Shown: positions 21,526 to 48,632 of the stretch, piece by piece
How the letters are laid out: each line of letters begins with the position of its first letter
How positions within the stretch are numbered: the stretch's first letter is position 1
Assembly (NCBI GenBank): GCA_027858965.1
Contig: JAQIBS010000107.1
Coordinates: forward strand, 35,617-99,616
Source: Kiritimatiellia bacterium
Lineage (GTDB): Bacteria > Verrucomicrobiota > Kiritimatiellia > RFP12 > UBA1067
DNA length: 64,000 bases
Direction: 5' to 3'
The notes under the pieces: model-generated
The model's database searches: none
Told to the model about the DNA's origin: nothing
The model's input: the letters and a program-made list of their open reading frames with translations, nothing else
Program-made: the position numbers and the translations under genes

Positions 21526-22539
21526 TCAATTAACGATGCAGAGTGATGCATCTGTTGCATCCGAAAGGAAGAGAGCGGCCTGCTCTACCGCCGATGAGCC
21601 CATGCGGACATTGGCTTCAACGGTGTTTGATCCGCAGTGCGGAGTAAGCACAATATTATCAAGTGTTCGTAAATCTTTATCGGCGTTGGCCGGTTGATAG
21701 GGTTCGTTGACGAAAACATCGGTGGCCGCAGCGGCAAGATGACCTGATGTAAGAGCATCATATAGCGCTGCTTCATCTACAATGCCACCACGTCCAATGT
21801 TGAGCAGCACGCTGCCTGTTTTCATCTGCGCGAGTTGATCAACACCAATCAGATTCTTTGTCGTATCTGTGAGCGGCAGGTGGATGCTGACGATATCTGC
21901 CCGTGGCAACAGAGTCATTAGATCTTGTGAGTAGCCTTCAAATCCAAAGGTTTCGCGTAGGGCTTCATGCGAACAGCCCGTGTTTGAGAGCCATTCGCTC
22001 TCGGACCTGCTGTCGCAAACCAGTGTCCGCACTCCAAAACCCAGGTGCAGCATGCGCATAACTTTCATTCCAATCTTGCCGCCTCCGATGATCAATGCTG
22101 TTTGCCCGCAGAGCTCCCGTCCGCAGATGGGTGCGAACTCTCCGTTACGAATGGTTGCATCCAGGCGTGGAATACGGCGCATAAGGGAGCCGATATGAAA
22201 CAGGGCCAGCTCGGCAACGCTGGTCTGGATGTCCACTGGCGTATTGACCAGCGTGATCCCTTTGGCCTTGGCGAGCGGTTTGTTGATGCTGTCGGTTCCG
22301 AATCCAAAGCGGATGATCAAGGCACCTTTATCTCCTGCATTTTCGGCTAGTGCATCATAAAGTTCGCCCTTGTATGGGTCAACACCCAGTACGACGGCGC
22401 GGCAGCCTGTAGCGCGAATGGTTTCAGCGAGGGTGGCCTCATCAGAGGCTACAGGACGACACTCGAGCTCGGGAGAGTCGGTGAAGACCGCTACAGCTTT
22501 GTTGTATTCAGCCTGGGTTGCGAGTACGATATTTTTCAA
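21526..22539 (-). CDS. D-isomer-specific 2-hydroxyacid dehydrogenase (glyoxylate/hydroxypyruvate reductase-like)
   Basis: NAD-binding GGGKIGMKV motif and a catalytic His region (TPHCGSNT). Confidence 0.8.
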   Translation of the reverse strand: MKNIVLATQAEYNKAVAVFTDSPELECRPVASDEATLAETIRATGCRAVVLGVDPYKGELYDALAENAGDKGALIIRFGFGTDSINKPLAKAKGITLVNTPVDIQTSVAELALFHIGSLMRRIPRLDATIRNGEFAPICGRELCGQTALIIGGGKIGMKVMRMLHLGFGVRTLVCDSRSESEWLSNTGCSHEALRETFGFEGYSQDLMTLLPRADIVSIHLPLTDTTKNLIGVDQLAQMKTGSVLLNIGRGGIVDEAALYDALTSGHLAAAATDVFVNEPYQPANADKDLRTLDNIVLTPHCGSNTVEANVRMGSSAVEQAALFLSDATDASLCIVN

Positions 22540-22627
22540 AATGTCATTCCTTCAATTTCTTTGCCTTAAAACCCCGCAGTAAAGATATATGACAGAATCA
22601 TTAAGGACAGAATCATTTTGAGCAGCA

Positions 22628-23383
22628 TTACTTGACATTCTTTAGCAGTTGCCGGCAGCCGTTCATAATCAGGTGGGTGTCAAGGCTGCATCCGATGAAG
22701 CGGTATCCGTTATCAACGCGCTCCTGAATGCGTGCGGCTTCCGGCGGTACAACGTGGTAGCCGGGTGCAATATTCTGTCGGCGACAGGCTTCCAGAATTT
22801 TTTGTTCCGCAGCAAGTACATCCGGGTGATCGAGCTCCCCAGGTATGCCCATAGAGGCGGAGAGATCATAGGGACCGATAAAGGCCGCATCAATCCCCGG
22901 TCGCGCGAGAATTTCGTCGGCACGTTCTGCTGCCAGCACATGTTCCAGCATCACGGCAACAAAGACTTCGTCGTTATGTTGGCTGATGTAGCTGTCGAAG
23001 TTGCGTCCGTAGTCCAGCGCCCGTGAGAGAGAGGTGCCTCGGTTGCCCTGCGGTGGGTAACGCACAGCAGCGGTCATGATGTCGACATCTTCGGGTGACA
23101 TTATGCTGGGAACAATAACTCCTTTAGCTCCGGCATCCAGGACATGTTTGGCCAGCACTGGGTTCACCCCATCGAGTCGGACAAAAAGGTCGCAGCCGGA
23201 GGGGCGAATCGCCCGCTCGATCTGTTCAATCTGTGAGAGTTCAACCGCCGCATGTTCCATGTCGACCGCGATCCAGTCAAAGCCTTCGCCTGCCATGATT
23301 TCGGCAATGGAGGGGTGGGGGATTAGCATCCATCCACCGAAGGCGCATTCGCCATTACGGATCTTCTGTTTAGTATTAGCCAT
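22628..23383 (-). CDS. HpcH/HpaI-family 2-keto-3-deoxy-acid aldolase
   Basis: About 250 aa with aldolase motifs (GFDWIAVDMEH, VRLDG), placed in a catabolic operon context. Confidence 0.8.
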   Translation of the reverse strand: MANTKQKIRNGECAFGGWMLIPHPSIAEIMAGEGFDWIAVDMEHAAVELSQIEQIERAIRPSGCDLFVRLDGVNPVLAKHVLDAGAKGVIVPSIMSPEDVDIMTAAVRYPPQGNRGTSLSRALDYGRNFDSYISQHNDEVFVAVMLEHVLAAERADEILARPGIDAAFIGPYDLSASMGIPGELDHPDVLAAEQKILEACRRQNIAPGYHVVPPEAARIQERVDNGYRFIGCSLDTHLIMNGCRQLLKNVK

Positions 23384-23539
23384 ATGGCTCCTTTGCTTAT
23401 GAATTAATTAAAAATTGTATGCGTTGTCTTCTCAGTGTCCTCCGTGGTAAAATCTACACAGTATTCACATCATGTTAATCCTGTAATCCTGTCAAAAAAA
23501 ATTTGCGTCTGAAAATTGATTTAGTATCTGAGGCTGTTC

Positions 23540-24823
23540 TTATTTTAGCCTGCCAGCCGAAAGTTCCACGAGCCACAGAGAGAGATCAGGCACAAAAGTG
23601 ATTATCAGCATCAGCACAGTCAGCATTATATAGAATGGCCAAAGATTGCGTACAATGGATCGTACCGGGGTGCCACTTATGCCTGAGATGACAAATAGCA
23701 GCATGCCGACCGGAGGTGAGAGCAGTCCGACCATAATCCCCAACTGGAAAACCACTCCAAAGTGCACAATATCAATTTGATATGCCTTTAAAACCGGGAG
23801 GAGCAGGGGTGTCAGTATGATCATAATGCTTCCACCCTCCATTACCATACCCAACATCAGAATTAATCCCAGAATCAGGAGTAGAAATATATTCCGGTTT
23901 TGTGTAATAGATTGGAATAATCCAATGAACTGTACCGCATCAACCTCGCGTGTAATCAGAAAACCAAAACAGGAGGCGCAGGCAATGATAATCATAATTG
24001 ACGCGGTGCGACGAGCTGTAACCAGTAGGATGCCGGGGAGATCACGTAGACGTAGAGAGCGGTAGAAGCAGAAGCCGGCCAGTAGGCCATATCCCACTGC
24101 CAGCGCACCAGCTTCTGTGGGTGTTACCAGTCCGCCGAAAATACCTCCTAGAATGATGACCGGCATCATGAGGGCCGGCAGTGCGCTGCGTAGGCTGTCC
24201 CAGAGCTCTTTGCGGCTGTGTGGGTCTCCGCCGGGGTAGCCGTGTCGGTAGGCTGTCCAGGCGCAAACCGACAGTGTTCCCACTGCCAGCAAGGTCCCCG
24301 GGATGGCACCTGCCAGAAACAGCTTGCCAACCGAAGCTCCTGATACAGAGGCGTAAATGATAAAGCCGACGCTTGGTGGAATAATTGGTCCCATGGTTGC
24401 GGCAGCTGCATTTAGGGCTGCTGCATATCCGCGCGGATATCCCTTGCGCTCCATCATGGGAATCATGGTTGATCCAACGGCGGCTGCGCTGGCTATTGCC
24501 GCGCCGGAGACCATCGCCACCAGCATATTGACCACCACCACAACGTATGATAGCCCACCGCGTGGCGGACCGATTATGGCCAGTGCCAGACGTGTCAGGC
24601 GTTGGGTGATCCCGGATCTGTTCATGATTTCGCCGGCCAGCAGAAAGAAGGGTAGGGCCAGCAGCACCAGTGAATCAGCTCCCACGCAAACCCGCTGGGC
24701 AATGATCATGGGCGATAGCTCTGGTGTAGAAAGTATATAAATGAGCGAGCTCAGCCCGAGGGCATAGGCGATCGGCATCCCTAGTATCAGGAGCAGCAGC
24801 ATAAGACCAATCAGGAGTTGCAT
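23540..24823 (-). CDS. dctM: TRAP transporter large permease subunit
   Basis: 427 aa with many TM helices and DctM family similarity. It overlaps the dctQ stop. Confidence 0.85.
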   Translation of the reverse strand: MQLLIGLMLLLLILGMPIAYALGLSSLIYILSTPELSPMIIAQRVCVGADSLVLLALPFFLLAGEIMNRSGITQRLTRLALAIIGPPRGGLSYVVVVVNMLVAMVSGAAIASAAAVGSTMIPMMERKGYPRGYAAALNAAAATMGPIIPPSVGFIIYASVSGASVGKLFLAGAIPGTLLAVGTLSVCAWTAYRHGYPGGDPHSRKELWDSLRSALPALMMPVIILGGIFGGLVTPTEAGALAVGYGLLAGFCFYRSLRLRDLPGILLVTARRTASIMIIIACASCFGFLITREVDAVQFIGLFQSITQNRNIFLLLILGLILMLGMVMEGGSIMIILTPLLLPVLKAYQIDIVHFGVVFQLGIMVGLLSPPVGMLLFVISGISGTPVRSIVRNLWPFYIMLTVLMLIITFVPDLSLWLVELSAGRLK

Positions 24824-25374
24824 GTGTCACCTCCGTTATCCAGAGTTGGACAATCTTCACTGACGGATGCGGTTTCGGAGAATTCACCGCGGATCAGTCG
24901 ACGGATGGCATACCAGAGAGCTAATGCGGCTGAACATGGCAACGCGGCATAAAAGAAAAGGTTGAGCGGCCATTGCAGTGCTGATGTATACGAGCCGCGT
25001 GTGGACCACACCCAGCACCCCCCCAGAATCACCAAAGCGCCATGAAAGAGAGCAACTCCTATCAGCATTGCAAATTCCACTTGATGACGGTATCGGCTGG
25101 AAAATTTTTCGACAAAGTACTCGACGCGAATGTGTTCACGTTCACGCAGTGTGACCGCGGCTCCCAGCAGCGTGAACCAGACAAAGAGATAGCGGACCAA
25201 TTCGTCGCTCCAGGAGAGAGAGTGATTCAGGACGTAGCGAAAGAAGACAGCTGTCAGTACGATACAGACAATGCTCGCACTGAGGCTTGCCAGCAATGTG
25301 TCGGCCACACGATCTATAATCGACGCAAACGAACTGCTTTTTTTTGAAATGGTATTTTTTGTTGTGTCTATCAT
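24811..25374 (-). CDS. dctQ: TRAP transporter small permease subunit
   Basis: About 185 aa with 4 TM helices, immediately upstream of and overlapping dctM. Confidence 0.7.
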   Translation of the reverse strand: MIDTTKNTISKKSSSFASIIDRVADTLLASLSASIVCIVLTAVFFRYVLNHSLSWSDELVRYLFVWFTLLGAAVTLREREHIRVEYFVEKFSSRYRHQVEFAMLIGVALFHGALVILGGCWVWSTRGSYTSALQWPLNLFFYAALPCSAALALWYAIRRLIRGEFSETASVSEDCPTLDNGGDTCNS

Positions 25375-25451
25375 TGGGTATAAGCTTTCCAAAAACTTTG
25401 TCTATTTGACCTTAAAAGACCAAGTAAAATCTGATTTTAACGTAAATCCAT

Positions 25452-25532
25452 CTTTCGGGATCGCTATCGGCATCGGTATCGCTACTCGAACTGCATTTTC
25501 GATAGCGATGCCGATAGCGATCCCGATTCCGA
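25452..25532. repeat. Inverted hexamer-repeat hairpin (GGTATC/GGCATC arrays with ~28-bp arms) in the dctQ leader, downstream of gntR
   Basis: ATCGCTATCGGCATCGGTATCGCTACTCG ... CGATAGCGATGCCGATAGCGATCCCGAT; the two arms are reverse complements. Confidence 0.7.
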
Positions 25533-25628
25533 ACTTCAACTTAAACGGCGCTACCTCTTCACTTTAGAACTCTCGAACTCTCGAACTTTAGAATTTCTCC
25601 ACTCCGCGACCAGCTCGTACCTAGCCGC

Positions 25629-26342
25629 TTAATTTTTGGTCTGCGGGGCACTCTCTTCGGAGAGATAGGCCTCCAGAGCGTTATGGTCAAACTGAGAGCC
25701 GAACTGTACATGCTTGCGCATGGCTTGCTCCGCTGTGTCGGGGTCGCCGGTCAGGAGTTGGCGTACAAGAAGCTGATGCCACTCTTTGGGAATATCCAGT
25801 ATCTTAATGGATTTAAGACTGTTGAACTTCATATACTGCTGGAACCAGACCTTCTTCAGCATTTTAACGAATATGCCGCATCCGCTTAAACGTCCGAGTT
25901 CTAGGTGAAATTCAAGATGCATCTGGTTTCCCAGGGTGGGGTCAGTCGTGTCGGCCCGGGTGAAACGATCCACCTGCTGAGCAAGTTTCATCAGTTTATC
26001 GCCGTCCCTTGGCTTTAAATTAAGCGCGCATAAACGTGCTACCTGGCACTCCAGTGCCTCCCGCAGCATCAGATCATCGTTGATATCTTCTATTGTTAAT
26101 GAGCGTACACGGCATCCGGCCAGCGGCCGGTTCTCCACATAGCCATCTATCTCCAGCATATAGAGAGCTTCAATTACCGGGAGGGTGCTGACGCCAAGCC
26201 GTGTTGCGATCTCTTTGCGCACCAGACGTTCACCGGGCTTAAGCAGTCCATCAATAATATTCTCGCGCAGTATACTGTATACTCGGCGTGAGAGGGTTTT
26301 CTCTCCCTCTTTTGGAACTTTCTTTGTCAGATAGTTGGCCAT
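25629..26342 (-). CDS. GntR-family transcriptional regulator (FadR/FCD C-terminal domain)
   Basis: N-terminal winged-HTH (LKPGERLVRKEIATRLGVSTLPVIEAL) and a ~150 aa helical effector domain. Confidence 0.85.
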   Translation of the reverse strand: MANYLTKKVPKEGEKTLSRRVYSILRENIIDGLLKPGERLVRKEIATRLGVSTLPVIEALYMLEIDGYVENRPLAGCRVRSLTIEDINDDLMLREALECQVARLCALNLKPRDGDKLMKLAQQVDRFTRADTTDPTLGNQMHLEFHLELGRLSGCGIFVKMLKKVWFQQYMKFNSLKSIKILDIPKEWHQLLVRQLLTGDPDTAEQAMRKHVQFGSQFDHNALEAYLSEESAPQTKN

Positions 26343-26615
26343 TGTTCTCCTTTGCGTTTTAATATATCAAAACCTCGGTTGTTATGTCAAATGCTTAAGT
26401 TCAAATTATTGTTAATGAGTATGCTTTGATTTAGATGGGTGATTTTGGATGTGTGCCGGATGTTTAAATTTGCACCCAATTTGCAATAAAACCCTTTATA
26501 TAAAGGGACTAAATGGTTATAAAACCCTCTGTTTGTGGTTTCGTTGGGGAGATAGTATTTATGTTCGATTTTTGATGCATCATCTGCTTTAGAGTAAGTA
26601 GGGTGATATTAGCCG

Positions 26616-26644
26616 TTGACAATTGCAATATGATATATCATAAT
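26616..26644 (+). promoter_or_regulatory. Sigma70-type promoter (TTGACA, 17 bp, CATAAT) with an embedded TGATATATCA palindrome, for LamG paralog 1
   Basis: Hexamers and spacing read from the sequence. A near-identical 31-bp block precedes LamG paralog 2. Confidence 0.6.
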
Positions 26645-26698
26645 GAAAAAACTTAATATAAAAGTAGATTGCTAATCTTTAAAGGCAAAGGAGATGTT

Positions 26699-28981
26699 AT
26701 GAAGTGTCATAAAATTGTATTCTCGATATGTGCGAGTGTCATATTGACCGCTATGTGTGTCAATGCCCAGGATTCTGGTCGATTGGTCGGTTGGTGGAAG
26801 ATGGATGAAGCCCCCGGAGCTACAACACTAGTGGATTCATCCGGTTATGGAAGAAATGCTACTCTTGGCACGGGAGCGTCTATTATTGATGGGCCGTTCG
26901 GTAAAGCTGTGCTTTTTGATGGCAGCGCCGATGCCTGGGCGGAGTTTGCCAATCCCTCGACTCTAACGAATTTCACCCTCTCCGCCTGGGTCAAGGTGAC
27001 TTCGTTTACAAACTCATATCCGAAGATGTTTCAGCTGGGTGGTTGCTACTATCAGTTCAACACAGCGAACCCAGGTAGATTCGGCCTTGGTATCGGTACT
27101 TCCCCCCGTGCGGACTGGATGTCTAATGGAACTGATCCATTTATTGCTGAAACAGGTAAGTGGTTGCATACTGCTGTTGTTATCAAGCGAAACTATACAA
27201 ATGCAACTGCCTGGATTGCCCAGCCTACCTTTTTTATCAACGGGGTGCGCTGTGGCACTCTGCAGACTCCGAAGAACTATTCGCCGGAGGCAGCGGGAGG
27301 TACCTATGGATATCTCGGCAATACCGGTCCCGGTGGAACCCGTGCGTTTGATGGAGCAATGGATGATGTCCGTATTTATGATCAGGTGCTCTCTGATCGT
27401 GAGATTCTTGATATCTATCAGAATTGCCCAGTTGCCGTTGATGCGGGAATAGACCGGATATGTCACCGCGCAACTGCCCAGCTGCAGGGCCGCTTGATCA
27501 GCACCAACCCCTACAGCGCCGCACGTCCGGCAACAAGTTTTTGGAGTGTTGTCTTATCGCCTGTAGGCAATCTGCCGATATTTGAAAATGACTCCCTGCC
27601 CTCGACATCGGTAACGCTGCCCGAGGATGGCGTTCATGTGTTCAGGCTGACCGCTGTCGGCGAACAGGGAATAACATCGAATGATGTTACCATTGTCCAC
27701 GATTCCGGTGAAGCTGCCGGCAATGCGGCACCGGTTGTCACCCTGCCTTGGTCGGCAACAACGGCCGTCTTCTCTCAGGGCATTGCTTTGTCAGGAGCTG
27801 TAACAGATGACAGTATGCCCTCGGCCACACCCTCCGTATGCTGGAGTAAAGTGAGTGGACCGGGTGGTGTTTTCTTTGACAATACCTTCACTGACACCAC
27901 CACCGCCTATTTCTCTGCCAATGGCATCTATGTTCTTCAACTGGAGGCCGATGATGGTGCGGCAACGGGATCTGATCAGGTGACAGTCACTGTGAACCTG
28001 CCGGCAGGAGACCTGACGGACGGGCTGATCCACTGGTGGCAGATGGATGAAGATCCTAAATTGACAAGTTCCTATGACTCTGCCGGTGCGAAGACGCTGA
28101 GCCTGCGTAACAAGACCCTTCTGCAGCCAGGCAAGACCGGGAACGGGCTTCGATTCCCGGTGCCGGCTTCTTATGCGCAGACCACGATTTTCACCAATGC
28201 GGAGAGCTTTACTTTCTCCCTCTGGCTCTATTATGATGCTGCCTACACCAATAATATTGGCAAGCGGATCTTTGATTATGGAACGTCGCGGTTCTACCTG
28301 TATTTCAACGGGGACAAGGTCTATCTGGCAACAAAAAATTTAGCGGAAACGCGTGATTATGCCTGGACCCAGCAAAATTACTCTCTGGAAAACGATAAAA
28401 GTAAGTGGGTCCATCTCGCGGTCACATATGACCGTCGTCCCAACCCCTCTATCGGACAGACGCAGACCTTCTATGTCAACGGTGTCTCAACTGGCTCTTC
28501 AGCGTTGACCGTTGCATACGATGGGTCAAAGGCCTTCACCCCCGGTGGTGAATTGAGAATTGGCGGCAATGGTTCAGTGCGCAATTTTGACGGGGTTTTC
28601 GACGACATGCGCGTCTATGACCGCCTGCTCTCTGAGGAGGAGGTCAAATTGCTGGCGGTGGATCCGGATAACAACCATGCGCCTGTTATTGAGGCCTCTG
28701 CCGCATTAACCACTCAGGTCGGGAAGCCGGTTGGTTCACTGGCCACGGTTTATGATGACGGGCAGCCCCGGGATCAGAGCCTTGCGACATCCTGGTCGGT
28801 GGTCTCAGGAGATGCCGGCAAAGTGATATTTGCGGATGATACAGACCCGGCCACCACCATCACAATTACCAAAACCGGTGAATATGTGTTGATGCTCTCC
28901 GCGACTGACGGTGAGTTGTCAAATGCCGTTAATATTCATATCACAGCCGCATCCTCCGGTACATTGCTGATGGTGCAATAA
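26699..28981 (+). CDS. Secreted concanavalin-A-like/LamG-domain protein with two LamG domains and Ig/PKD-like repeats
   Basis: Signal peptide, the LVGWWKMDEAPGATTLVDSSGYGRNATLG LamG N-terminal motif and the C-terminal DPDNNHAPVIEA Ig-like repeats. The start was set at the ATG at 26699, which has a GGAG Shine-Dalgarno. Confidence 0.7.
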   Translation: MKCHKIVFSICASVILTAMCVNAQDSGRLVGWWKMDEAPGATTLVDSSGYGRNATLGTGASIIDGPFGKAVLFDGSADAWAEFANPSTLTNFTLSAWVKVTSFTNSYPKMFQLGGCYYQFNTANPGRFGLGIGTSPRADWMSNGTDPFIAETGKWLHTAVVIKRNYTNATAWIAQPTFFINGVRCGTLQTPKNYSPEAAGGTYGYLGNTGPGGTRAFDGAMDDVRIYDQVLSDREILDIYQNCPVAVDAGIDRICHRATAQLQGRLISTNPYSAARPATSFWSVVLSPVGNLPIFENDSLPSTSVTLPEDGVHVFRLTAVGEQGITSNDVTIVHDSGEAAGNAAPVVTLPWSATTAVFSQGIALSGAVTDDSMPSATPSVCWSKVSGPGGVFFDNTFTDTTTAYFSANGIYVLQLEADDGAATGSDQVTVTVNLPAGDLTDGLIHWWQMDEDPKLTSSYDSAGAKTLSLRNKTLLQPGKTGNGLRFPVPASYAQTTIFTNAESFTFSLWLYYDAAYTNNIGKRIFDYGTSRFYLYFNGDKVYLATKNLAETRDYAWTQQNYSLENDKSKWVHLAVTYDRRPNPSIGQTQTFYVNGVSTGSSALTVAYDGSKAFTPGGELRIGGNGSVRNFDGVFDDMRVYDRLLSEEEVKLLAVDPDNNHAPVIEASAALTTQVGKPVGSLATVYDDGQPRDQSLATSWSVVSGDAGKVIFADDTDPATTITITKTGEYVLMLSATDGELSNAVNIHITAASSGTLLMVQ

Positions 28982-29000
28982 GTCGTCCAGATACCGGTCG

Positions 29001-29183
29001 AATTGGAGGGGCGCTGGCCCAGCGCCCGTGAGCAGGTGTCGAGCGTACGGATAGCGGACCGTGAGGCCACGGTCCCTCCAGAATCGCGGCGATGCCGCGA
29101 TCGGATTGACTTGCAGTTGCTGGCCTGACCCGCCGCGTGTGGCTTGAAATGGAGGGGCGCTGGCCCAGCGCCCGTGAGCAGGT
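29001..29183. repeat. Two direct copies (~38 bp, 145 bp apart) of a palindromic element GGAGGGGCGCTGGCCCAGCGCCCGTGAGCAGGT, with further hairpins between them
   Basis: Copies lie at 29001-29037 and 29146-29183. Each contains a perfect GGGCGCTGG/CCAGCGCCC palindrome. Confidence 0.75.
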
Positions 29184-29271
29184 ACTGAGCGTAGGGCATA
29201 AATAGCGTGGAAGAGCCAAAAGTTAACCCAGAGTTTAATACATACAGTTTTTACAGGAGAATATTTACCAA

Positions 29272-32200
29272 ATGCCGTCCTATAAAGTTTTACCTCTCTT
29301 GCAAGTTTCTGTCATGGCTGCCGTCTGCCTCATCCTTGTCCAACACGCCAACGCGAAAGAGTGGCGCGTGTTTCTGATGGGGGGACAGTCAAATATGGAA
29401 GGGGTGGGTATCGCGGCTGAGGCTCCTCAGAATTTGGTTTCACAGCCGGATATACAGTTGTACCACTCTCCCTCCGTACGGTCGGGATTACCGGCAAATC
29501 AATGGAATTCGTTGGCCTCCGCTGGTGTCAGTCCCAGTAACTTCGGTTCTGAGCTCAGCTTTGCCTATCGCATGGCAGAGGCGCTCCCCGGAGAGAATAT
29601 TGCCTTGATCAAGCACGCTAAAGGTGGCACCAAGCTGACCACATTGGCGCTTCACTATGAGGTCACCAGCTGGCATCCGGGAACGAGCGTTGCCGACTCC
29701 GCCTCCTTCGGTGTTGAGTTTGCCACCTTTGTACACACGGTCACCAATGCGCTGGCTGCCATTCAGGCGCAGGGCGATACACCGATTATATCCGGTATGC
29801 TCTGGGTGCAGGGTGAGGCCGACGCAACCAGCGTTGATGCGGGTGCAGCCTATGAACAGAATATTACCCGTTTTATTGCACGTGTCCGAGAGCAGTTTGC
29901 CGTACCGGATATTCCTTTTGTCTGCGCCCGCATTCTGCCGTATCAAACACGGCCTGCATCCGTTGTCGTCCGTCAAACACTGGATGATATCGACCAGGAC
30001 TCCGGTTCTCCTGCCGCGATACCCCATGTATTCACCATTCACACCGAAGGTCTGGGGATACATACCGACAATGCTCACTTCAACACCCCCGGACAGCTTG
30101 GACTGGGTGTACTCCTGGCGCAAAGCATGAGCCAGCGTGCTCTCAATATTGCTCCGCAAGCCACTCCACCAACTACCGCGTATTGGCAGTTTGATGAAAG
30201 TTTCGGCACGAGCTATCTTCTGGATGCGGTCGGCACCTATCATCTCGATCTGCAGGTCTCAGCCACCAATGCTCCTGTACTGATTGAGCGTGCATCGCAA
30301 TCTGTGAAGCCGAAGTTTATTGATGGAACTTTGCCGCAGGCTAATGCCGGCAGTCTGACACAGGGCTGGGGGATGCGTCGTCAGTATGATGAGTCTCTCG
30401 ATATGCGCAGCCAACCCTGGACCTTTGAGGCCTTCTTTCAAAATAATGCGGTAGGAACGCAAGGCAATTATGAGGTGATTGGCGGCACCCGCTCTGCCAT
30501 GTCGCAGTACTATGGCTGGCGTGTAATCATGAGCTACGGCAAAATCCGTTTCTTTGCCACTGCGAATAATGGAGAGACCGCGCATGTTCTTACGAACCTG
30601 CGTTATGACGACGGGCGGGTCCACCATCTGGCAGCTATATGGAATCCTGATGAGGGGGCAACCGGCACCATGCGTTTGTATATTGATGGCGCGCCGGTGG
30701 GTGCGAGTGCTGGGAAGGGAGATCTGGGCGATGATACCGATTTCGCAAAACTATTTGCGCTGGGAGGGAATATCACCGGAACAAAAGAGGCTCCTCTCAT
30801 CAGTACGTACCAGTGGAATGGCTCTCTGGATGAGATTCGTATTACAGCTGGCGCTCTTCACCCGACACAATTTTTAAATGCCTTCCCCAAGGGAACTTTG
30901 CTAAAGCTCTCTAATGTTGACCCACTGGACCGTCTCTATCCTGACCGCACTCCTTATGCTTCCAGGTGTGTGGCTCATGTGCCCCGCGGGGGCAGGGCTA
31001 TTTTCCAGTTTGCTGTGCAGACATCTGCCGATGCCGGCAGCGTCACGCTATCAGCAGGTTCCCCCGTAAAAAAAAATGGCATAACTCTGAAAAATGCTCC
31101 CTGTGTGCAGGTTCTTCGGAGTGTTCAGGTTGAGGCAAACTATTGCGGCTGTGCCAGAACCCAGGTGGGAAAAGTGCCCTCAAGTTCAGTTCGCGCAGCG
31201 GTTGTGCGACAGGCTCCTTTTGATGTGTATGAGGTGCTGACCGATGATGCTGAGATCGATCTTGACGGCCGATACACCTATGCGGCAGCGGTTCACGTCG
31301 ATATTCCGCGGGAGGCGGAGCCAGGATTATATCACGGAGAGCTAACTGCAACGCTGGAAGGGCAGGGCGTGGTCAAATCCCCCTTTGACATACAGGTTTA
31401 CCGGACATCCCTTCCGGAGCAGAGTCCGCTGGATGTCATTCACTGGCTTTGGCCGGAACCGCAGAATCTGACAGATTGCCCCCCGCCTGCATGGTGGAGT
31501 GAGGAGCATTGGAAGCTGCTTGAAGCATCCGGACGAACCCTGCATGAATACGGCGATACCGTTATGTTTACACCGCTGTTTGCAACGGAAAATCCGTTGA
31601 TCAGGGTTGTCATTAATTCTGGGTCGGAAAATAGCTGGTCCTTTGATTTTGATCAGTTTGATCGCTGGGTCACAATGTTTAAGAAACAGGGATTCACCCG
31701 TTTTTTCGGCAAGCATATCAGCGGTTATCACTCGTTGTTCACTTTTGATCAGAAAACCGGTGCGCAGAAACCTCTAAAGTTTACATTTGAGGAATATCAT
31801 CAAGCCTTTCTTCCCGCTTTTTACAGCGCCTTTTATAAACACCTTTGCGAACATGGATGGCAGAAATGCTACATTCAATCGCTAACTGATGAACCTCGGA
31901 TCAAGGCATTGCAACGCTATGAGCAGATGGCCCGGAGCTTTCGCAAGCATATGCCGGGAATTGGTATTACGGAAGCTCTCAATCATGAATTTGATCAGTT
32001 CTCGGATTTTGTGGATGTTCCTGCCTGGTGGTACGGTTACGTGTATTCAAAGGATTGGCCTGATCTTATTCAGCAGAGGATAGCGGCAGGAAAAGAGAAT
32101 TGGATCTATTATGCCTGCACACCCTCGCCTCCACATCCCAACAGTCATTTAGATGTGCCGCTATGGCGTTGCCGCGTTTTGCCGTGGGTTGCCGATTATT

Positions 32201-32598
32201 GCAAAGCAGGGGGCATTCTGCATTGGGCTGCTAATGGCTACCGCGGGGCTGACCCCTATGCCGGCAGCATTGGTCCATTGCCCAACGGCTCTACAACACC
32301 CGGACACCCACCAGGGGATAACTGGCTTTTCTACCCAACCGAACATGGTCTTACGGGGTCAATGCGCATGGCTGCCTTTCAGCAGGGAGTTGAGGATTAC
32401 GCACTTTTGAAGATTCTGCGCGCAAAGGATAATGCCGCCGCTGCCCCCATTGCTGATAGTATAGTTCATTCGATGGTTCTGGATTATCGTAACAAAGATA
32501 TCCGTTCCGATTATGCCAATAATGCTGCGAGCTACAGTGTTGCCCGGCAGCAGCTTCTGGAGAAACTGGATTCTTGCAGTGCCGCACCGGCACCGTAA
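29272..32598 (+). CDS. Multidomain secreted enzyme: sialate-O-acetylesterase-like SGNH domain (GQSNMEG), LamG domain, and a DUF4091-like glycoside-hydrolase-associated C-terminal domain
   Basis: The RVFLMGGQSNMEG motif, a central LamG-like region and a C-terminal region paralogous to the C-terminus of the 46058..48475 protein. Confidence 0.7.
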   Translation: MPSYKVLPLLQVSVMAAVCLILVQHANAKEWRVFLMGGQSNMEGVGIAAEAPQNLVSQPDIQLYHSPSVRSGLPANQWNSLASAGVSPSNFGSELSFAYRMAEALPGENIALIKHAKGGTKLTTLALHYEVTSWHPGTSVADSASFGVEFATFVHTVTNALAAIQAQGDTPIISGMLWVQGEADATSVDAGAAYEQNITRFIARVREQFAVPDIPFVCARILPYQTRPASVVVRQTLDDIDQDSGSPAAIPHVFTIHTEGLGIHTDNAHFNTPGQLGLGVLLAQSMSQRALNIAPQATPPTTAYWQFDESFGTSYLLDAVGTYHLDLQVSATNAPVLIERASQSVKPKFIDGTLPQANAGSLTQGWGMRRQYDESLDMRSQPWTFEAFFQNNAVGTQGNYEVIGGTRSAMSQYYGWRVIMSYGKIRFFATANNGETAHVLTNLRYDDGRVHHLAAIWNPDEGATGTMRLYIDGAPVGASAGKGDLGDDTDFAKLFALGGNITGTKEAPLISTYQWNGSLDEIRITAGALHPTQFLNAFPKGTLLKLSNVDPLDRLYPDRTPYASRCVAHVPRGGRAIFQFAVQTSADAGSVTLSAGSPVKKNGITLKNAPCVQVLRSVQVEANYCGCARTQVGKVPSSSVRAAVVRQAPFDVYEVLTDDAEIDLDGRYTYAAAVHVDIPREAEPGLYHGELTATLEGQGVVKSPFDIQVYRTSLPEQSPLDVIHWLWPEPQNLTDCPPPAWWSEEHWKLLEASGRTLHEYGDTVMFTPLFATENPLIRVVINSGSENSWSFDFDQFDRWVTMFKKQGFTRFFGKHISGYHSLFTFDQKTGAQKPLKFTFEEYHQAFLPAFYSAFYKHLCEHGWQKCYIQSLTDEPRIKALQRYEQMARSFRKHMPGIGITEALNHEFDQFSDFVDVPAWWYGYVYSKDWPDLIQQRIAAGKENWIYYACTPSPPHPNSHLDVPLWRCRVLPWVADYCKAGGILHWAANGYRGADPYAGSIGPLPNGSTTPGHPPGDNWLFYPTEHGLTGSMRMAAFQQGVEDYALLKILRAKDNAAAAPIADSIVHSMVLDYRNKDIRSDYANNAASYSVARQQLLEKLDSCSAAPAP

Positions 32599-32722
32599 TC
32601 AGGGTATTCGAATAACAACCCGATAATTAGAGAAAATAGTTGGGTATATCACAAGAGCTCAGTTCCTCCTCCGTCAAGACTCCGGCGTGACATGTTAGTT
32701 GCGGCGGAAAGTAGCTTTAGTT

Positions 32723-32732
32723 TGATATATCA
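32723..32732. promoter_or_regulatory. Additional TGATATATCA palindrome (candidate operator)
   Basis: Perfect 10-bp palindrome. It shares the 13-bp ATATATCAAAACC with the gntR upstream region at 26362-26374. Confidence 0.4.
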
Positions 32733-32987
32733 AAACCAGCGAATGCTTTTTACAGAGCCCGTATTTGAATTTTGTATTTGAGGTGGCGGCAGTTGATGGT
32801 CAAAAATCAGGGGGTTCTGTCGAAAGATCAATGAAGATTACGGGTGTTGTGTGTGTTTATCCCTTTTAATATTGGGTTTTACGAAATATATGGGTTTTGT
32901 AGATTATAATATAATTTTGATTAAGTTACCGCTCTGGAGAGATCTCTCGTTGCCTTGAATACGATAAATAATATATTGGCTTATCGG

Positions 32988-33016
32988 TTGACAATTTCAA
33001 TATGATATATCATAAT
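32988..33016 (+). promoter_or_regulatory. Sigma70-type promoter (TTGACA, 17 bp, CATAAT) with an embedded TGATATATCA palindrome, for LamG paralog 2
   Basis: 30 of 31 bp identical to the 26616-26644 block. Confidence 0.6.
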
Positions 33017-33064
33017 GTTACGCATTAACTGTAAGAGTTTGTTATCCTTCAGGTAGGAGATGTT

Positions 33065-35353
33065 ATGAAATCCAATATGAAACTATTTACTATGCTTCTG
33101 TGTATCGTATTCACTGGTTTTTTGGCTCAGGCGCAGCTCTCTGACCGTCTGATCGGCTGGTGGAGAATCGATGATGCCACTAATGCCACGACTCTGGTGG
33201 ATTCCTCGGGCAATGGACGAAATGCAACCATTGGCTCCGGTGTCGAAATTGTGGAGGACGGCCGTTTTGGCCGTGCAGCCCATTTTAACGGCACCAGTGA
33301 TGCCTGGGCCAGATTCTCCAATCCAACACTCTCAAATATGACTTTCGCTGCCTGGGTGTTTATGGAGAATACTAACAATATCATGCCGCGTATTATGCAG
33401 GTGTCTAGCGACACCTATTACCACATGCCCTCTAGTTCTCCGGGCCAGTTCACCCTCGGTGTGCGTAACAACAACTGGAGTACAAGTGTTCCCGACCCAT
33501 TTAAGTTTGAGACCAACACTTGGTTTCATGCCGCAGTTGTCTATCAACAACAGTATACCAATGCTACCGACCGCATCGTCTGGCCGACCTTCTATATCAA
33601 CGGCGTGCGCTGCGGTGACCCTCTGCCGCCCAAAGCCTTCCTTAATGCCCTCGCAGCTGGGCCGTCCTTCTATTTCGGGAATAATAGCAGCACTGGAATC
33701 CGTCCGCTTGAAGGCTTGATGGACGATGTTCGCCTCTATGACGCCCCGCTCTCTGACAAAGATATACTCTCCATCTATCAAAACAGCCCCCTCTCTGTCG
33801 ATGCGGGTGCAGATCAAACCGTCTACCGTGACACAACTGCATTGCAGGGGCGTTTGATCAATACCAACCCTTTTATGCGTGATTTGACCTCTGGAATAAA
33901 CTGGAGCACGGTTTCCGCACCGACGGGGGATGCGCCCGTTATTGAAACACCCTGGCTGCCTGCCTCAACCGTTACCCTGCCGGAAGCCGGCGATTACACC
34001 TTCCTATTAACTGCCGTCACCGAGCTCGGCACCGTTTCTAATGATGTCACCGTCACTCGTAACATCAGCGCCCCACCGGCTGGGAATATCGCTCCTGTTG
34101 TCACGCCGCTGGAGGCATCAATCAACAGCGTTCTTGGATCCGGTGTACCCCTCGAAGCAACCGTTACTGACGATGATATCCCCGGAGCCACGCATCTGTG
34201 CTGGAGTAAAATCAGTGGACCTGGCGCAGTCTTTTTTGACAATGCCTTTACCAGCAACACCGCCGCCTTTTTCTCCACCAATGGCACCTATGTTGTCCGA
34301 CTTGCAGCCGATGACGGCGACTTGCAAGGTAGCGCCGACATAACCGTTACTGTTGCTCTACCCTCGGGTGACATCTTCAATGGGCTTGAACACTGGTGGC
34401 AGATGAATGATGACCCGGTCCTGAAGAAAGCCTTTGACAGCGCCGCTGACAATACGCTCTCCCTCAATAACCTCGCTTTCCTCCAGCCCGGCAAAACGGG
34501 TAACGGCTATCGCGGCCCTAAACTTGATGCTGTGGGCGTGGCCGCCAGTCTCCCCACCAATGCCGAAACGATGACCTTTTCCTCCTGGTTCTTTTTTGAT
34601 GATGCTTATGTGCAGGGGGCCAGTGGCAATAAGTACCAGCGTCTCTTCAACTGCGGCCCAAACTTTTATATTCTCTATAATACAACCAATAATCACCTGG
34701 ACTTGTCCACACGGGGGATCGGCACTGGTGATACCCAGCACACGTGGTCATGGAGCACCGAATTCACCCCGAATACATGGTTCCACGTTTCGATCCTCTT
34801 CGACCGCCGCGCCGCCGCGAGCGGTTCGCGACAGGTGATGTATGTTAACGGGGAAAAGGTCTTTTCAGGTAACTTAAGCACTGCCTTTCCCGGTGCGGCC
34901 GCTTTCACATCCTCGTTCATCATCTCCAATACCGGCGCCAATAATGGCACTCGTAATTTCGATGGTGTGCTGGATGAAATGCGGGTCTACTCCCGTTTCA
35001 TTACAGATGAAGAGGCCCTCCTGCTGGCGGCCGATCCGGACAACAACCACGCTCCGGTAATTGAAGTCCCTGTTGTTCGGCTGGTCAAGGTCGGTCAGCT
35101 GGTTGCTCTCGAAGGGATGGTTACTGATGACGGTCAACCCTTCGGCAGCACTCTAATAAAAGGCTGGAGTGTCATCTCCGGTGATCAGAATGATGTGATT
35201 TTTGCCGATGCTTCCGACCCTGCCACTGACGCAAACTTCACGCGTACTGGAGAGTATGAAATCATGCTTTCCGCCACAGATGGCGAGCAGCAGGCGGCAA
35301 CGATTGTGCAGATTAACGCAGTTGATTCCGGCACGATTATATTGTTGCAATAA
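33065..35353 (+). CDS. Secreted LamG-domain protein, paralog of 26699..28981
   Basis: Same architecture and motifs (LIGWWRIDDATNATTLVDSSGNGRNATIG ... DPDNNHAPVIEV). Confidence 0.7.
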   Translation: MKSNMKLFTMLLCIVFTGFLAQAQLSDRLIGWWRIDDATNATTLVDSSGNGRNATIGSGVEIVEDGRFGRAAHFNGTSDAWARFSNPTLSNMTFAAWVFMENTNNIMPRIMQVSSDTYYHMPSSSPGQFTLGVRNNNWSTSVPDPFKFETNTWFHAAVVYQQQYTNATDRIVWPTFYINGVRCGDPLPPKAFLNALAAGPSFYFGNNSSTGIRPLEGLMDDVRLYDAPLSDKDILSIYQNSPLSVDAGADQTVYRDTTALQGRLINTNPFMRDLTSGINWSTVSAPTGDAPVIETPWLPASTVTLPEAGDYTFLLTAVTELGTVSNDVTVTRNISAPPAGNIAPVVTPLEASINSVLGSGVPLEATVTDDDIPGATHLCWSKISGPGAVFFDNAFTSNTAAFFSTNGTYVVRLAADDGDLQGSADITVTVALPSGDIFNGLEHWWQMNDDPVLKKAFDSAADNTLSLNNLAFLQPGKTGNGYRGPKLDAVGVAASLPTNAETMTFSSWFFFDDAYVQGASGNKYQRLFNCGPNFYILYNTTNNHLDLSTRGIGTGDTQHTWSWSTEFTPNTWFHVSILFDRRAAASGSRQVMYVNGEKVFSGNLSTAFPGAAAFTSSFIISNTGANNGTRNFDGVLDEMRVYSRFITDEEALLLAADPDNNHAPVIEVPVVRLVKVGQLVALEGMVTDDGQPFGSTLIKGWSVISGDQNDVIFADASDPATDANFTRTGEYEIMLSATDGEQQAATIVQINAVDSGTIILLQ

Positions 35354-35450
35354 CAGGAGCAGGAACGCTTCTGTTTCTGGATCATTACACTGCATAAATA
35401 CGGAGCAGGGACTCTTTCGTTCCTGTCTCTTTTTAATAAAGGCACTTTTT

Positions 35451-37316
35451 ATGAATAATCATTTTTCTCTCAATCATGCGCTCTCTCTATTGATTTGCAC
35501 CTGCACCTTCCATGCAGCTGCCGTTACCCCTGCGGCCACTTCTTCAACGATCCCCGACATGCGGCACATAGCAACCGGATGGGAGATCCCCAGCAAGCAC
35601 TATGCCGATCAGCCCTACATCGTAAAAACCGATGACGGGGCCTGGCTCTGCTGTATCACCACTGGTAGTGGTCATGAAGGTACACCCGGTCAGCATGTGA
35701 TCTCAATGCGCAGTACCGATCAGGGTAAAACATGGTCTGCCCCCGTGGCTCTTGAACCCGCCGGTGGACCGGAAGCCTCTTATGCTGTCATGCTTAAAAC
35801 GCCTTATGGTCGCATTTACTGCTTCTATAATCATAATACCGACCGCGTTAAAGAGGTGAAGCGTGAGGACAAAGGTGTCTATAAACGTGTCGATTCCCTG
35901 GGTCACTATGTTTTCAAGTATACGGACGACCACGGTCGTTCATGGTCAAAGCAACGCTATGATATTCCCATGCGTACCTTCGATTGTGACAGCGAGAATG
36001 TTTACGGAGGAAAATTAAAATTCTTCTGGAACGTCGGGCGTCCGCTGATTTACAAAAATGCCGCCATCTGCGTGATCCATAAAGTCGGCGCTATGGGTGC
36101 GGGATTCTTTGCCCGCTCAGAGGGTGCCTTCCTGAAAAGTGAAAATATCCTGACAGAACGCGATCCTTCAAAGGTTAGCTTTAAAACACTCCCTGAGGGT
36201 ACCATCGGCCTGCGCACACCTCCGGGAGGCGGACGTGTTTCCGAAGAACAGAGTATCGTCGCGCTTAGCGACGGCTCCATCTTCTGCGTCTACCGCACCA
36301 TTGACGGCTGGCCCACCACCGCCTACAGCCGCGACGGTGCCCGGACCTGGAGCACTCCCGCCTACATGACCTACACGCCCGGTGGTAAACGCGTCAAACA
36401 TCCCCGTGCCGCAAACTTTGTGTGGAAATGCTCCAATGGTAAATTCCTCTATTGGTTCCATAATCATGGCGGACGTTTTATCGGTGAACTTGGTGCTAAC
36501 GGTAAAAACGGGCAGAGTCCATATGATGATCGTAATCCTGCATGGCTCATGGCCGGCCGTGAGATTGACACACCAAAGGGTCGCATGCTTGAATGGTCAC
36601 AGCCGGAGATACTGCTCTATGATGATGATCCCGCCGTCCGCATGAGTTACCCTGATCTGGTGGAGGAGAATGGAAAGTTCTATGTTACGGAGACCCAGAA
36701 AGTTATTGGGCATACCCATCTGATTGACTCTGCCTTGGTGAACGGTTTATTCAACCAGTGGGAGAATAAATCTGTTGCTGAAAAGGGGCTGATTCTGAAT
36801 CTTTCAAACAAAAAACCTATGCCCTCTCAAGCTAAGATGCCAGGATTGCCGGCAATCACCAAGAAAGATAAAGATCTGCGGAAAGGCTGTAGCATTGACC
36901 TGTGGCTGAAAGCTGATGAGCTTACACCTGGACAACCTCTTCTCGACAGCCGTGATAATGATGGCAGGGGACTTCTCGTTTCGATTGCAGAGAAGGGCGC
37001 ACTCCGCATTCTCTTTAGTGATGGACGAACCGAGGCCTCCTGGTCCAGTGACAACGGACTCCTGAAAGCCGGCACTGCGCATCATGCCGTGATTACCGTG
37101 GATGGTGGTCCCAAAATTATCACCTTTGTTGTTGATGGAACGCTTTGCGATGGAGGCGACCAGCGCCAGTTTGGATGGGGTCGCTTCAGTCGCGACCTGC
37201 GTACATTCAACGGTGCGTCTATGCTGAAAATCGACCCCGCAGTTCAATCACTGCGCATTTATAACCGTGCCATCCGTACCAGTGAGGCAGTTGGAAATTT
37301 CAAGGCTGGATTGTAA
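35451..37316 (+). CDS. BNR-repeat exo-alpha-sialidase-like glycosidase with a C-terminal LamG-like domain
   Basis: Signal peptide and BNR motifs STDQGKTWSAP, TDDHGRSWSKQ and SRDGARTWSTP. The start was set at the ATG at 35451. Confidence 0.7.
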   Translation: MNNHFSLNHALSLLICTCTFHAAAVTPAATSSTIPDMRHIATGWEIPSKHYADQPYIVKTDDGAWLCCITTGSGHEGTPGQHVISMRSTDQGKTWSAPVALEPAGGPEASYAVMLKTPYGRIYCFYNHNTDRVKEVKREDKGVYKRVDSLGHYVFKYTDDHGRSWSKQRYDIPMRTFDCDSENVYGGKLKFFWNVGRPLIYKNAAICVIHKVGAMGAGFFARSEGAFLKSENILTERDPSKVSFKTLPEGTIGLRTPPGGGRVSEEQSIVALSDGSIFCVYRTIDGWPTTAYSRDGARTWSTPAYMTYTPGGKRVKHPRAANFVWKCSNGKFLYWFHNHGGRFIGELGANGKNGQSPYDDRNPAWLMAGREIDTPKGRMLEWSQPEILLYDDDPAVRMSYPDLVEENGKFYVTETQKVIGHTHLIDSALVNGLFNQWENKSVAEKGLILNLSNKKPMPSQAKMPGLPAITKKDKDLRKGCSIDLWLKADELTPGQPLLDSRDNDGRGLLVSIAEKGALRILFSDGRTEASWSSDNGLLKAGTAHHAVITVDGGPKIITFVVDGTLCDGGDQRQFGWGRFSRDLRTFNGASMLKIDPAVQSLRIYNRAIRTSEAVGNFKAGL

Positions 37317-37318
37317 TC

Positions 37319-38422
37319 ATGGGTAATGGCTGGCAGAAAAGTATGCATGACCGCGTGGAGCTGTTTCAACAGTTTCATTGTCGGGAGAATGCACGTCCGC
37401 TGTTTGGCTTTTTTAAAGGCAGCGAATACCCTTTGACGCGCTATCCTTTCAGCCAGATTCTCCCCGAAGGCCGTGAGCTGCAGCCTGATGATTTTGATGT
37501 CGCCGCTTTTGTCGATAATGCCGAACAGCTCTTTCTTGAGCATGAAGCCTGTGGCGGAGATTTTATTTACAGCGCCAGCGCCTTCTGGGGTATTCCCTGG
37601 TTAGAGGCCTCTCTGGGCTGCCCGCTTTTTGCCAATCAGACCACCGGTTCAATTTACTGTGAGCCGCCATCGAATTTTTCTGTCGATTCAGTGCCGTCTT
37701 TTAACCGCAACAATCCCTGGATACGCCTGATGGTGGATATGCTCTCTGCGTTGGCGCAGAGAAGCGCCGGTCGCTTTCCTTTGGCAACCACCCGCATGCG
37801 TGGTGTGGCCGATCTGCTCTCTGCATTGTATGGCGGCGATGCTTTTGTTTTTGCATTGTTTGATAAACCAGATGAAGTTATGCAGGTTTGCCGTTGTGTT
37901 ACCGATCATTTTATTCAGTGCGCTGCGCTGCAGTTGGAGCATATACCGGATTTCTACGGTGGGATAGGTTCGTTTTACTATTACATGTGGGCTGCAAAGG
38001 GGACGGTGTGGCATCAGGAGGATGCCGCGGCTTTGCTATCCCCCGATCTATATACACAGTTTGTCGAACCATTTGATCGTCAGATTGTCGCATCTTTCCC
38101 GCATGTAGTCATGCATCAGCACTCAACCGGATTTGTTCCAACCGAGAAATATCTTGAAATGGGTATGAGTGTGCTGGAATTGCATATCGACAGCGGGGGA
38201 CCATCCGCCCGTGACTTATACGAACGTCATCTGGCAATTCTTGAGAAGTGCCCTCTTCTTATCTGGGGTGATATTCCGAAAGAAGACCTCGACTGGATTT
38301 TCTGCAAGCTTCCCGTACAAGGGCTTGCTATAATAACAGTGGTCAAAGATGCCGATGAGGCACAACAACTATGGGAGCGCTATGTCAAGCATCCGATAGA
38401 ATGCAGGTGTTTAGGTGTTTAG
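37319..38422 (+). CDS. Conserved hypothetical protein, possibly URO-D/MtaA-like (beta/alpha)8 fold
   Basis: Only weak resemblance to uroporphyrinogen-decarboxylase-family proteins. It starts 3 bp after the sialidase stop, and its last codons lie in a TAG-rich repeat. Confidence 0.4.
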   Translation: MGNGWQKSMHDRVELFQQFHCRENARPLFGFFKGSEYPLTRYPFSQILPEGRELQPDDFDVAAFVDNAEQLFLEHEACGGDFIYSASAFWGIPWLEASLGCPLFANQTTGSIYCEPPSNFSVDSVPSFNRNNPWIRLMVDMLSALAQRSAGRFPLATTRMRGVADLLSALYGGDAFVFALFDKPDEVMQVCRCVTDHFIQCAALQLEHIPDFYGGIGSFYYYMWAAKGTVWHQEDAAALLSPDLYTQFVEPFDRQIVASFPHVVMHQHSTGFVPTEKYLEMGMSVLELHIDSGGPSARDLYERHLAILEKCPLLIWGDIPKEDLDWIFCKLPVQGLAIITVVKDADEAQQLWERYVKHPIECRCLGV

Positions 38423-38590
38423 ACTGTTAGGTGTTTTGGTATTGGATAAACCATCTTTTCAAAACAGTACATCTGCATTTCACCTAACAGCCTAAACCAG
38501 CGAAGCCGGAATCAAATAGGCAGTAAGTAACAGGAGAATATTTTCTGACAGTCTAACAGTCTAATAGCCGAACAGCCTAAAAACCTAAGC
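38405..38590. repeat. TAG-rich intergenic repeat region with inverted repeats (GTTTAGACTGTTAGGTG / CACCTAACAGCCTAAAC)
   Basis: Direct and inverted short repeats read from the sequence. Confidence 0.6.
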
Positions 38591-38634
38591 GTCTTTTGGG
38601 ACGCGGATGAATTATAAACCAGGAGAGACATACC

Positions 38635-40026: not shown

Positions 40027-40315
40027 TGTGGAGTAGCGAGTGGTGAATTATTTGACTCGAACTTTGTCTCGCACTTAGTCTGGTTTGACAAGGTGTGAGA
40101 CAAGGAAGTCGTTCGCTATGCGGGCGACTGCGGGTGGTACGCGAATGATCAGGTTACGCAAAATGGTCAGCCGCGTAGCGACTGCCCTCCTTAATCAGCA
40201 CTTTATCAAAGACAAATGATGATAAATATTAAATAGACAACTTTTCGGAAACAACCATTAAGTGTATTTTCTAGCCACAGACGGGCTTGAAATTTGAACC
40301 ACGGATGAACCACTG

Positions 40316-48628: not shown

Positions 48629-48632
48629 TATC

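Follow-up and report, generated by a model that had tools for sequence, protein, structure and literature searches.

Which regulator, if any, reads a short AT-rich palindrome recurring in the promoters of one locus is the question raised by 64,000 nucleotides of the genome of a Kiritimatiellia bacterium (GenBank assembly GCA_027858965.1, contig JAQIBS010000107.1, positions 35,617 to 99,616 of the forward strand). This whole 64-kb stretch is referred to as the window, and positions are counted from its first letter. The palindrome, TGATATATCA, which extends to a 16-bp operator consensus of TTTTGATATATCAAAA, is likely to be the operator of the FCD-type GntR regulator encoded beside it (gntR, 25629-26342), which would repress three promoters and respond to an acid sugar as inducer.

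Copies of the palindrome and the promoters that carry them

Exact copies of TGATATATCA are found in the window at 26631-26640, 32723-32732 and 33003-33012, and a near-copy, TAATATATCA, lies at 26360-26369 in the region between gntR and the divergent gene LamG1. In addition, ATATATCAAAACC is common to 26362-26374 and 32725-32737. An initial annotation of this DNA had listed these copies, including the third at 32723-32732, and the observation is confirmed. Three exact copies compare with 0.02 expected, and three or more were seen in none of 100 shuffles. With one mismatch allowed there are 4 copies against 1.7 expected, and 4 or more occurred in 9 of 100 shuffles, so that count alone is not significant. 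A matrix trained solely on sites from other genomes was then run over the window and returned exactly four sites (24.9 to 26.6 bits), the next best scoring 11.9. These sites, the promoters that bear them and the regulator are as follows.

25629-26342, minus strand: gntR, the proposed repressor, a FadR/FCD-subfamily GntR regulator of 237 aa (Pfam GntR and FCD)
26357-26372, no strand: O-gntR, TTTTAATATATCAAAA, core 26360-26369; matrix score 26.6; covers approximately -16 to -5 of PgntR
26361-26390, minus strand: PgntR, TTGACA (26390-26385), 18-nt spacer, TATATT (26366-26361), with a TG extended -10; promoter scan 11/12
26616-26644, plus strand: PlamG1, TTGACA, 17-nt spacer, CATAAT; promoter scan 11/12
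26629-26642, no strand: O-lamG1, perfect 14-bp palindrome TATGATATATCATA, core 26631-26640; matrix score 24.9
32721-32734, no strand: O-aux, perfect 14-bp palindrome TTTGATATATCAAA, core 32723-32732; matrix score 25.1; 280 bp upstream of O-lamG2
32988-33016, plus strand: PlamG2, TTGACA, 17-nt spacer, CATAAT; promoter scan 11/12; 28/29 identical to PlamG1
33001-33014, no strand: O-lamG2, TATGATATATCATA, core 33003-33012; matrix score 24.9

The perfect 14-bp palindromes at 26629-26642, 32721-32734 and 33001-33014 are AT-rich and have the length of a site for one dimer (about 12-16 bp). O-aux is the only match to TTGA-N4-TCAA in the window, and neither this pattern nor the matrix found further sites there upstream of dctP, the two other BNR genes, the second GH123 gene, the SASA/GH123 gene or dctQ.

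All three predicted promoters are of sigma-70 type, with TTGACA at -35 and a -10 close to TATAAT 16-18 nt away, upstream of a gene start. PgntR, which has a site in its own extended -10, was absent from the initial annotation and was added by the promoter scan; the near-palindrome O-gntR falls exactly over that extended -10, while O-lamG1 spans the spacer and first bases of the PlamG1 -10. Within 25300-33200, a score of 11/12 is reached by the three promoters bearing a site and by no other, and in 33200-48700 the same scan gave only promoter-like sites of ≤ 9/12.

The near-identity of the two LamG promoters reported earlier, 30/31 over a 31-bp block, stands for 26615-26645 and 32987-33017, although the coordinates then quoted (26616-26644) span 29 bp; over 26609-26645 and 32981-33017 identity is 34/37. 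In both promoters TTGACA is 9 nt from the palindrome (TTGACA-N9-TGATATATCATAAT). Elsewhere the regions upstream of LamG1 and LamG2 have diverged to background, save a second short island and the ribosome-binding site. As the flanks have diverged and the two proteins are only 47% identical, the shared block is under selection rather than a recent copy. Recent gene conversion between the LamG promoters was considered and is unneeded: the LamG1 promoter of another species (L082) is 29/30 identical to PlamG2 of the window, so purifying selection suffices for the identity. No Rfam family was found in the window, so a riboswitch or leader does not explain the conserved upstream blocks.

Conservation of the palindrome with gntR

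A GntR alignment, scanned against one genome per species, gave 16 orthologous loci (GntR 62-78% identical, locus G+C 49-68%), from Kiritimatiellae and metagenome-assembled genomes (MAGs) labelled as related groups, together with 64 more distant homologues. Two closer relatives (GntR 89% and 82% identical) were added through exact protein look-up. The initial annotation had staked its proposal on the palindrome being present in orthologous promoters of related genomes, and there it was found: 12 of the 16 orthologous loci have TGATATATCA, one mismatch being allowed, in the 300 bp ahead of gntR, and the 4.5 kb upstream of gntR in all 16 loci together holds 16 matches, compared with 2 in 181.6 kb elsewhere (P = 2e-24). 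When 160 AT-matched 10-bp palindromes were compared, only TGATATATCA recurred, in 12/16 loci, the next best reaching 3/16.

Across the orthologous loci the palindrome occupies the same two positions, one in PgntR, 19-34 nt from the gntR ATG, and one in the divergent promoter. Compact back-to-back promoters invariably have the two sites at a distance of 62-63 bp. Genomes differ in which gene is divergent from gntR (LamG, BNR, URO-D-like or an MFS transporter). Thus, the sites in the regulator's own and divergent promoters are conserved with the regulator across genomes, and a site in gntR's own promoter gives the layout of a self-regulating local regulator.

Aligned orthologous intergenic DNA contains two conserved promoter islands, the remainder being unalignable. 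In the comparison with loci L081, L082 and L001, PlamG1 is one of only two such islands, and the 14-mer TATGATATATCATA of O-lamG1 is identical in L081 and L082. The orthologous PgntR pattern is TTTGACA-N14-TTGATATATTAA and that of the divergent promoter GTTGAC-N-GRTATATCATAMT. Both the -35 and the -10 of PgntR are kept in 18/18 aligned orthologous promoters, and the -35 is invariant over 18 promoters of each class. PgntR has an invariant T at -8 (TATATT, not TATAAT) and conserves A at -13, -6 and -5; the divergent promoters conserve TATAT from -17 to -13 together with a C at -12. These features depart from the sigma-70 consensus and either make no difference to sigma-70 or disfavour it; as far as the aligned promoters tell, the dyad symmetry of the palindrome explains them.

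A metagenome scan used a spacing of N11 and not the N9 of the LamG promoters, which places orthologous LamG promoters outside its matches. Matches to TTGACA-N11-TGATATATCATA (L084-L170; 27-63% G+C) stand upstream of PadR-, LexA- and GntR-like genes, HtpG and housekeeping genes, and one recurrent family, TTGACAATATATC..TGATATATCATA, stands ahead of a 183-aa PadR-like gene.

Variants of the palindrome co-vary with the recognition helix

In GntR homologues that are 37-48% identical to the window protein, the corresponding position is taken by TTGACATGTCAA (Planctomycetes) or TGATCGATCA (Verrucomicrobia), and at one distant homologue locus (L020) TTTTGATATATCAAAA itself is in place. The family-wide motif is TTGA-N4-TCAA, and its CATG and TCGA centres are not -10-like. 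Over loci L017-L031 the operator variants co-vary with positions 3-4 of the GntR recognition helix: S-x-[LIV]-P is paired with a TATA centre, S-[PR]-M-[PA] with CATG and S-x-S-T with TCGA. In GntR regulators the operator position that is contacted tends not to be G/C where the protein has Pro, and tends to be G/C where it has Ser (PMC4494728). The pairing of helix and centre is, on these alignments, in keeping with the Pro/Ser rule of that study, and it is possible that it represents a specificity rule for this GntR clade. Of the sequence evidence, this co-variation speaks most strongly for the adjacent GntR, rather than some other factor, as the protein that would read the site. Together with the positions of the sites in orthologues and the autoregulatory layout, it supports the earlier suggestion of the neighbouring regulator as the candidate reader of the palindrome.

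Beyond this range, homologues 32-37% identical have exact or near-exact TGATATATCA beside the gene, with different neighbours (L034, L036, L038, L039, L055, L057, L061, L064 and L074). Their hosts include Sphaerochaeta and other Spirochaetota, Acidobacteriota and a Calditrichales genome. Over L017-L080, exact copies of TGATATATCA number 24 near the GntR homologue versus 7 elsewhere (P = 9e-10).

Gene layout around gntR

The earlier calls of LamG paralogs, a GntR/FadR-type regulator, TRAP genes and an aldolase agree with Pfam. Apart from gntR, the genes concerned are the following.

21526-25392, minus strand: dctQ, dctM, HpcH-type aldolase and 2-hydroxyacid dehydrogenase (Pfam); same strand as gntR and downstream of it
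26699-28981, plus strand: LamG1, secreted, two Laminin_G_3 domains and PKD (Pfam)
29272-32598, plus strand: SASA esterase/LamG/GH123 fusion protein (Pfam)
33065-35353, plus strand: LamG2, paralog of LamG1, two Laminin_G_3 domains and PKD (Pfam)
35202-38422, plus strand: BNR/LamG (sialidase-like) gene, then the URO-D-like gene, directly after LamG2 (Pfam; tight gaps)
37319-38422, plus strand: URO-D-like protein; Pfam URO-D match weak (E = 3e-4, below cut-off)
42817-43401, plus strand: sulfatase open reading frame (ORF), covering only residues 4-130 of a 467-aa homologue
43642-44682, plus strand: dctP, at the end of the glycosidase array

The regulator combines an N-terminal GntR winged helix-turn-helix (PF00392, 52.3 bits, cut-off 27; E = 4e-14) with a C-terminal FCD domain (PF07729, 58.3 bits, cut-off 24.3; E = 1e-15), as expected of the GntR/FadR-FCD subfamily, and a protein named GntR regulator in a Kiritimatiellae MAG is 100% identical to it. 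Pfam scans of the locus and its flanks found no second DNA-binding regulator.

On the plus strand the order is LamG1, SASA/LamG/GH123, LamG2, BNR/LamG, URO-D-like, two more BNR genes, the truncated sulfatase and dctP. The LamG1 ATG (26699) is preceded by GGAG and has the same start context as that of LamG2, while the start of the BNR/LamG gene after LamG2 is uncertain in position. The sulfatase ORF is probably a truncated remnant. Neither a sequence relative in the PDB nor an NCBIfam match was found for the URO-D-like protein. Its gene is a conserved member of the cluster and in L005, L015 and L016 is the one divergent from gntR.

The TRAP gene dctP is separated from dctQM by 18 kb, unlike in most orthologues, where it comes directly after dctM. 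In the window neither an operator nor a strong promoter was found ahead of dctP. The closest solved relatives of the TRAP binding protein, of which PDB 4PC9 is the best, are TRAP solute-binding proteins, and SiaP, which binds sialic acid, accounts for many of them. Pfam and NCBIfam showed no NanA-type lyase among the genes of the window, where an HpcH-type aldolase is present instead.

Probable transcription units

In most orthologues dctQ follows gntR at a gap of 0-100 bp and is followed by dctM, sometimes dctP, the aldolase and the dehydrogenase. Because these genes are on one strand with such tight gaps, the transporter and aldolase genes are probably read from PgntR; in the window this applies to dctQ, dctM, the HpcH aldolase and the 2-hydroxyacid dehydrogenase. 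The same arrangement upholds the link that had been drawn earlier between the LamG genes and the TRAP and aldolase operon. The window gntR-dctQ gap is 236 bp and holds neither a promoter-like site nor a matrix match. A hairpin at 25455-25526 in this gap has 27-nt arms (-52.5 kcal/mol as RNA) and has no T-run, so is not a canonical terminator. With a diverged second copy 34 kb away (59493-59566), it looks like a repetitive extragenic palindromic (REP)-like element.

LamG1 and the SASA/GH123 gene are probably co-transcribed: their gap (28982-29271) holds no promoter-like site and no matrix match, and in L001 it is 20 bp. In the window this gap is occupied by 51-nt direct repeats (29000-29050 and 29146-29196, 90% identical), each with a hairpin, GGGCGCTGGCCCAGCGCCC. 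LamG2, BNR/LamG and the URO-D-like gene probably form one transcript, and the last two of these remain beside gntR across phyla of the Planctomycetes-Verrucomicrobia-Chlamydiae (PVC) group. The set of GntR, TRAP dctQMP, HpcH-type aldolase, 2-hydroxyacid dehydrogenase, BNR/LamG, URO-D-like and further BNR genes is found together in Kiritimatiellae, Planctomycetes and Verrucomicrobia.

The region upstream of LamG2

Ahead of LamG2, both classes of site of the gntR-LamG1 region recur with order and orientation unchanged, the gntR-side TTTGATATATCAAA and then the LamG TATGATATATCATA, at a spacing of 280 bp compared with 271 bp. O-aux sits inside a decayed copy of the gntR promoter; its palindrome is perfect, while the -35 that goes with it matches at only 3/6 positions and the -10 has lost the last T. 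This arrangement suggests that the LamG2 upstream region is a duplicate, made long ago, of the entire divergent region. An equivalent two-site module, with 62 bp between the sites, stands ahead of a LamG2-type gene in L013. A 225-aa ORF between gntR and that gene was considered as a LamG1 remnant and dropped, as the similarity is not significant (E = 0.8). In L001, LamG1, SASA/GH123 and LamG2 follow one another with gaps of 9-20 bp and no internal promoter, and L081 has no LamG2.

Comparison with characterized regulators

The recognition helix of the window GntR is STLPVIEAL, and the FadR-subfamily helix usually has arginines at two of those positions (SRTPVREAL). Every one of the best PDB matches is an FCD-type GntR regulator; Thermotoga maritima TM0439 and other solved members (PDB 3sxy, 3fms, 2hs5 and 7xp0) align over the full length, with E-values of only about 1e-11. 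Orthology to UxuR, ExuR, LldR, PdhR, NanR, CsiR or PhnR was not found, since all NCBIfam scores are far below the curated cut-offs (best phnR_burk, 83.7 bits against 271.5; UxuR, 38.7 against 442; NanR subfamily, 35.9 against 260).

Sugar-acid repressors of the FadR subfamily (UxuR/ExuR, DgoR and LldR/PdhR of E. coli and GntR of B. subtilis) have the same GntR winged helix and all-helical FCD domain. They likewise use an AT-rich palindromic operator of about 12-16 bp in their own or a divergent promoter region and control an operon for an acid-sugar transporter and aldolase, which is predicted here (PMC4494728). However, the operator core here is TGATATATCA and not TKGT/ACMA. NanR, which governs sialic acid catabolism in E. 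coli, is also an FCD-type regulator whose locus has sialidase or sialate-related enzymes and an acid-sugar transporter, and its half-site, TGGTATAW, resembles the TGATATA/TGGTATA half-site here (PMC4494728). In contrast to the inverted repeat described here, NanR binds direct repeats, and the window protein, at 35.9 bits, is not its orthologue; in addition, the window has an HpcH-type aldolase where no NanA-type lyase was seen. The full-text literature yielded no published account of this motif or of a Kiritimatiellae GntR regulon.

Alternative explanations

Several points weigh against GntR as a repressor acting at these sites. All sequences compared come from MAGs. Each site except that at 32723 overlaps a -10, so that part of the site conservation is due to promoter function, and in the divergent promoters the half-site in the spacer is less conserved than the half adjoining the -10. 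Operators of the GntR family are marked by TKGT/ACMA boxes (GT...AC) with 2-3 nt between them (PMC4494728). Most sites here have AT in place of this GT/AC and read TGAT..ATCA; an alternative alignment on TTGA-N4-TCAA retains the hallmark G and C, not the T and A. Only three clades underlie the co-variation, and phylogeny confounds it. The hairpin at 25455-25526 (-52.5 kcal/mol) could limit read-through into the TRAP genes and, as no site stands ahead of dctP, two BNR genes or the second GH123 gene, the proposed regulon depends on long transcripts.

The least probable explanation is that the conserved blocks are merely strong promoters, with the palindrome a by-product of an AT-rich -10 and no regulator bound. 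Overlap with a -10 at all strong sites but 32723 would fit this, as would the metagenome scan, where the occurrence of TTGACA-N11-TGATATATCATA upstream of unrelated genes in many phyla indicates that such a sequence can arise as a -10-like element. However, the positions conserved in step with the palindrome's symmetry (TATAT in the spacer; C at -12; T at -8; A at -13, -6 and -5) do not matter to sigma-70 or disfavour it, the 14 bp at 32723 form a perfect palindrome although no usable promoter goes with them, the motif is on no other promoter-like site in the window, and distant homologues keep the palindrome in place with CATG or TCGA cores that do not resemble a -10. It is also highly improbable that the palindrome is a real operator belonging to a different regulator encoded elsewhere in the genome. 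The lack of the canonical GT/AC would favour this, the part of the genome inspected was 64 kb only, and the related loci were picked via gntR, a choice that by itself ensures part of the co-location with this gene. Against a foreign regulator stand the site in gntR's own -10 in nearly all orthologues, the variant palindromes that track changes in the GntR recognition helix, the absence of a second DNA-binding regulator from the locus by Pfam, and the canonical form in some orthologues (TGGTATACC in L005; TGGTATAT is found in L004, L009, L010 and L014).

Less remote, although still unlikely, is that GntR binds without being a simple repressor (an activator or a dual regulator), or that the site at 32723 is a non-functional leftover of an old duplication. 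The copying of both site classes ahead of LamG2, in unchanged order and orientation and at nearly the same spacing (280 versus 271 bp), fits a duplicated region, and the closely packed genes of L001, with no internal promoter, are likewise in line with a leftover or a role other than repression. On the other hand, operators over the -10 and spacer are positioned for steric repression. The palindrome at 32723 has stayed perfect even though its flanks have diverged to background and the LamG paralogs share only 47% identity, and L013 retains an equivalent upstream site at 62 bp. Repression by the adjacent GntR is the preferred explanation.

Proposed mechanism

A GntR dimer would bind over the spacer and -10 of the three sigma-70-type promoters and block RNA polymerase. 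Repression of PgntR would be autoregulation, and PgntR probably reads on into dctQ, dctM, the aldolase and the dehydrogenase. PlamG1 would serve LamG1 and probably the SASA/GH123 gene, and PlamG2 would serve LamG2, BNR/LamG and the URO-D-like gene. O-aux, 280 bp upstream of PlamG2, would be an inherited copy of the gntR-side site and may aid binding. Release of the repressor would follow when its FCD domain binds either an acid sugar that the TRAP system has imported or a 2-keto-3-deoxy intermediate. An acid sugar is the most likely inducer because the solved relatives of the TRAP binding protein are often SiaP. Induction would then switch on glycan binding, hydrolysis, uptake and cleavage together.

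Implications for the PVC group

The mechanism itself is an ordinary one, a local GntR-type repressor that also controls itself. What it would provide is a testable regulon for an uncultured Kiritimatiellae lineage, with one regulator, four operators and three promoters, which ties secreted LamG proteins, sialidase-like enzymes, an esterase/GH123 fusion, a TRAP transporter and an unusual aldolase into one unit.

A more tentative suggestion, on the doubtful side, is that the GntR clade with TTGA-N4-TCAA operators is the dedicated switch of an uncharacterised glycan pathway found across the PVC group. If so, BNR/LamG glycosidases would release an acid sugar resembling sialic or ulosonic acids, which the TRAP system would import and which would be cleaved by an HpcH-type class II aldolase, the URO-D-like enzyme and the 2-hydroxyacid dehydrogenase rather than by the classical NanA route. 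In that case the regulator would offer a sensor already at hand for tracking down the substrate of the pathway, and the co-variation of helix and operator would add a specificity rule for a GntR group without the usual GT/AC contacts. In either case, the regulator and its operator may be used to identify the inducing sugar, which would help to assign a function to this PVC-conserved cluster.

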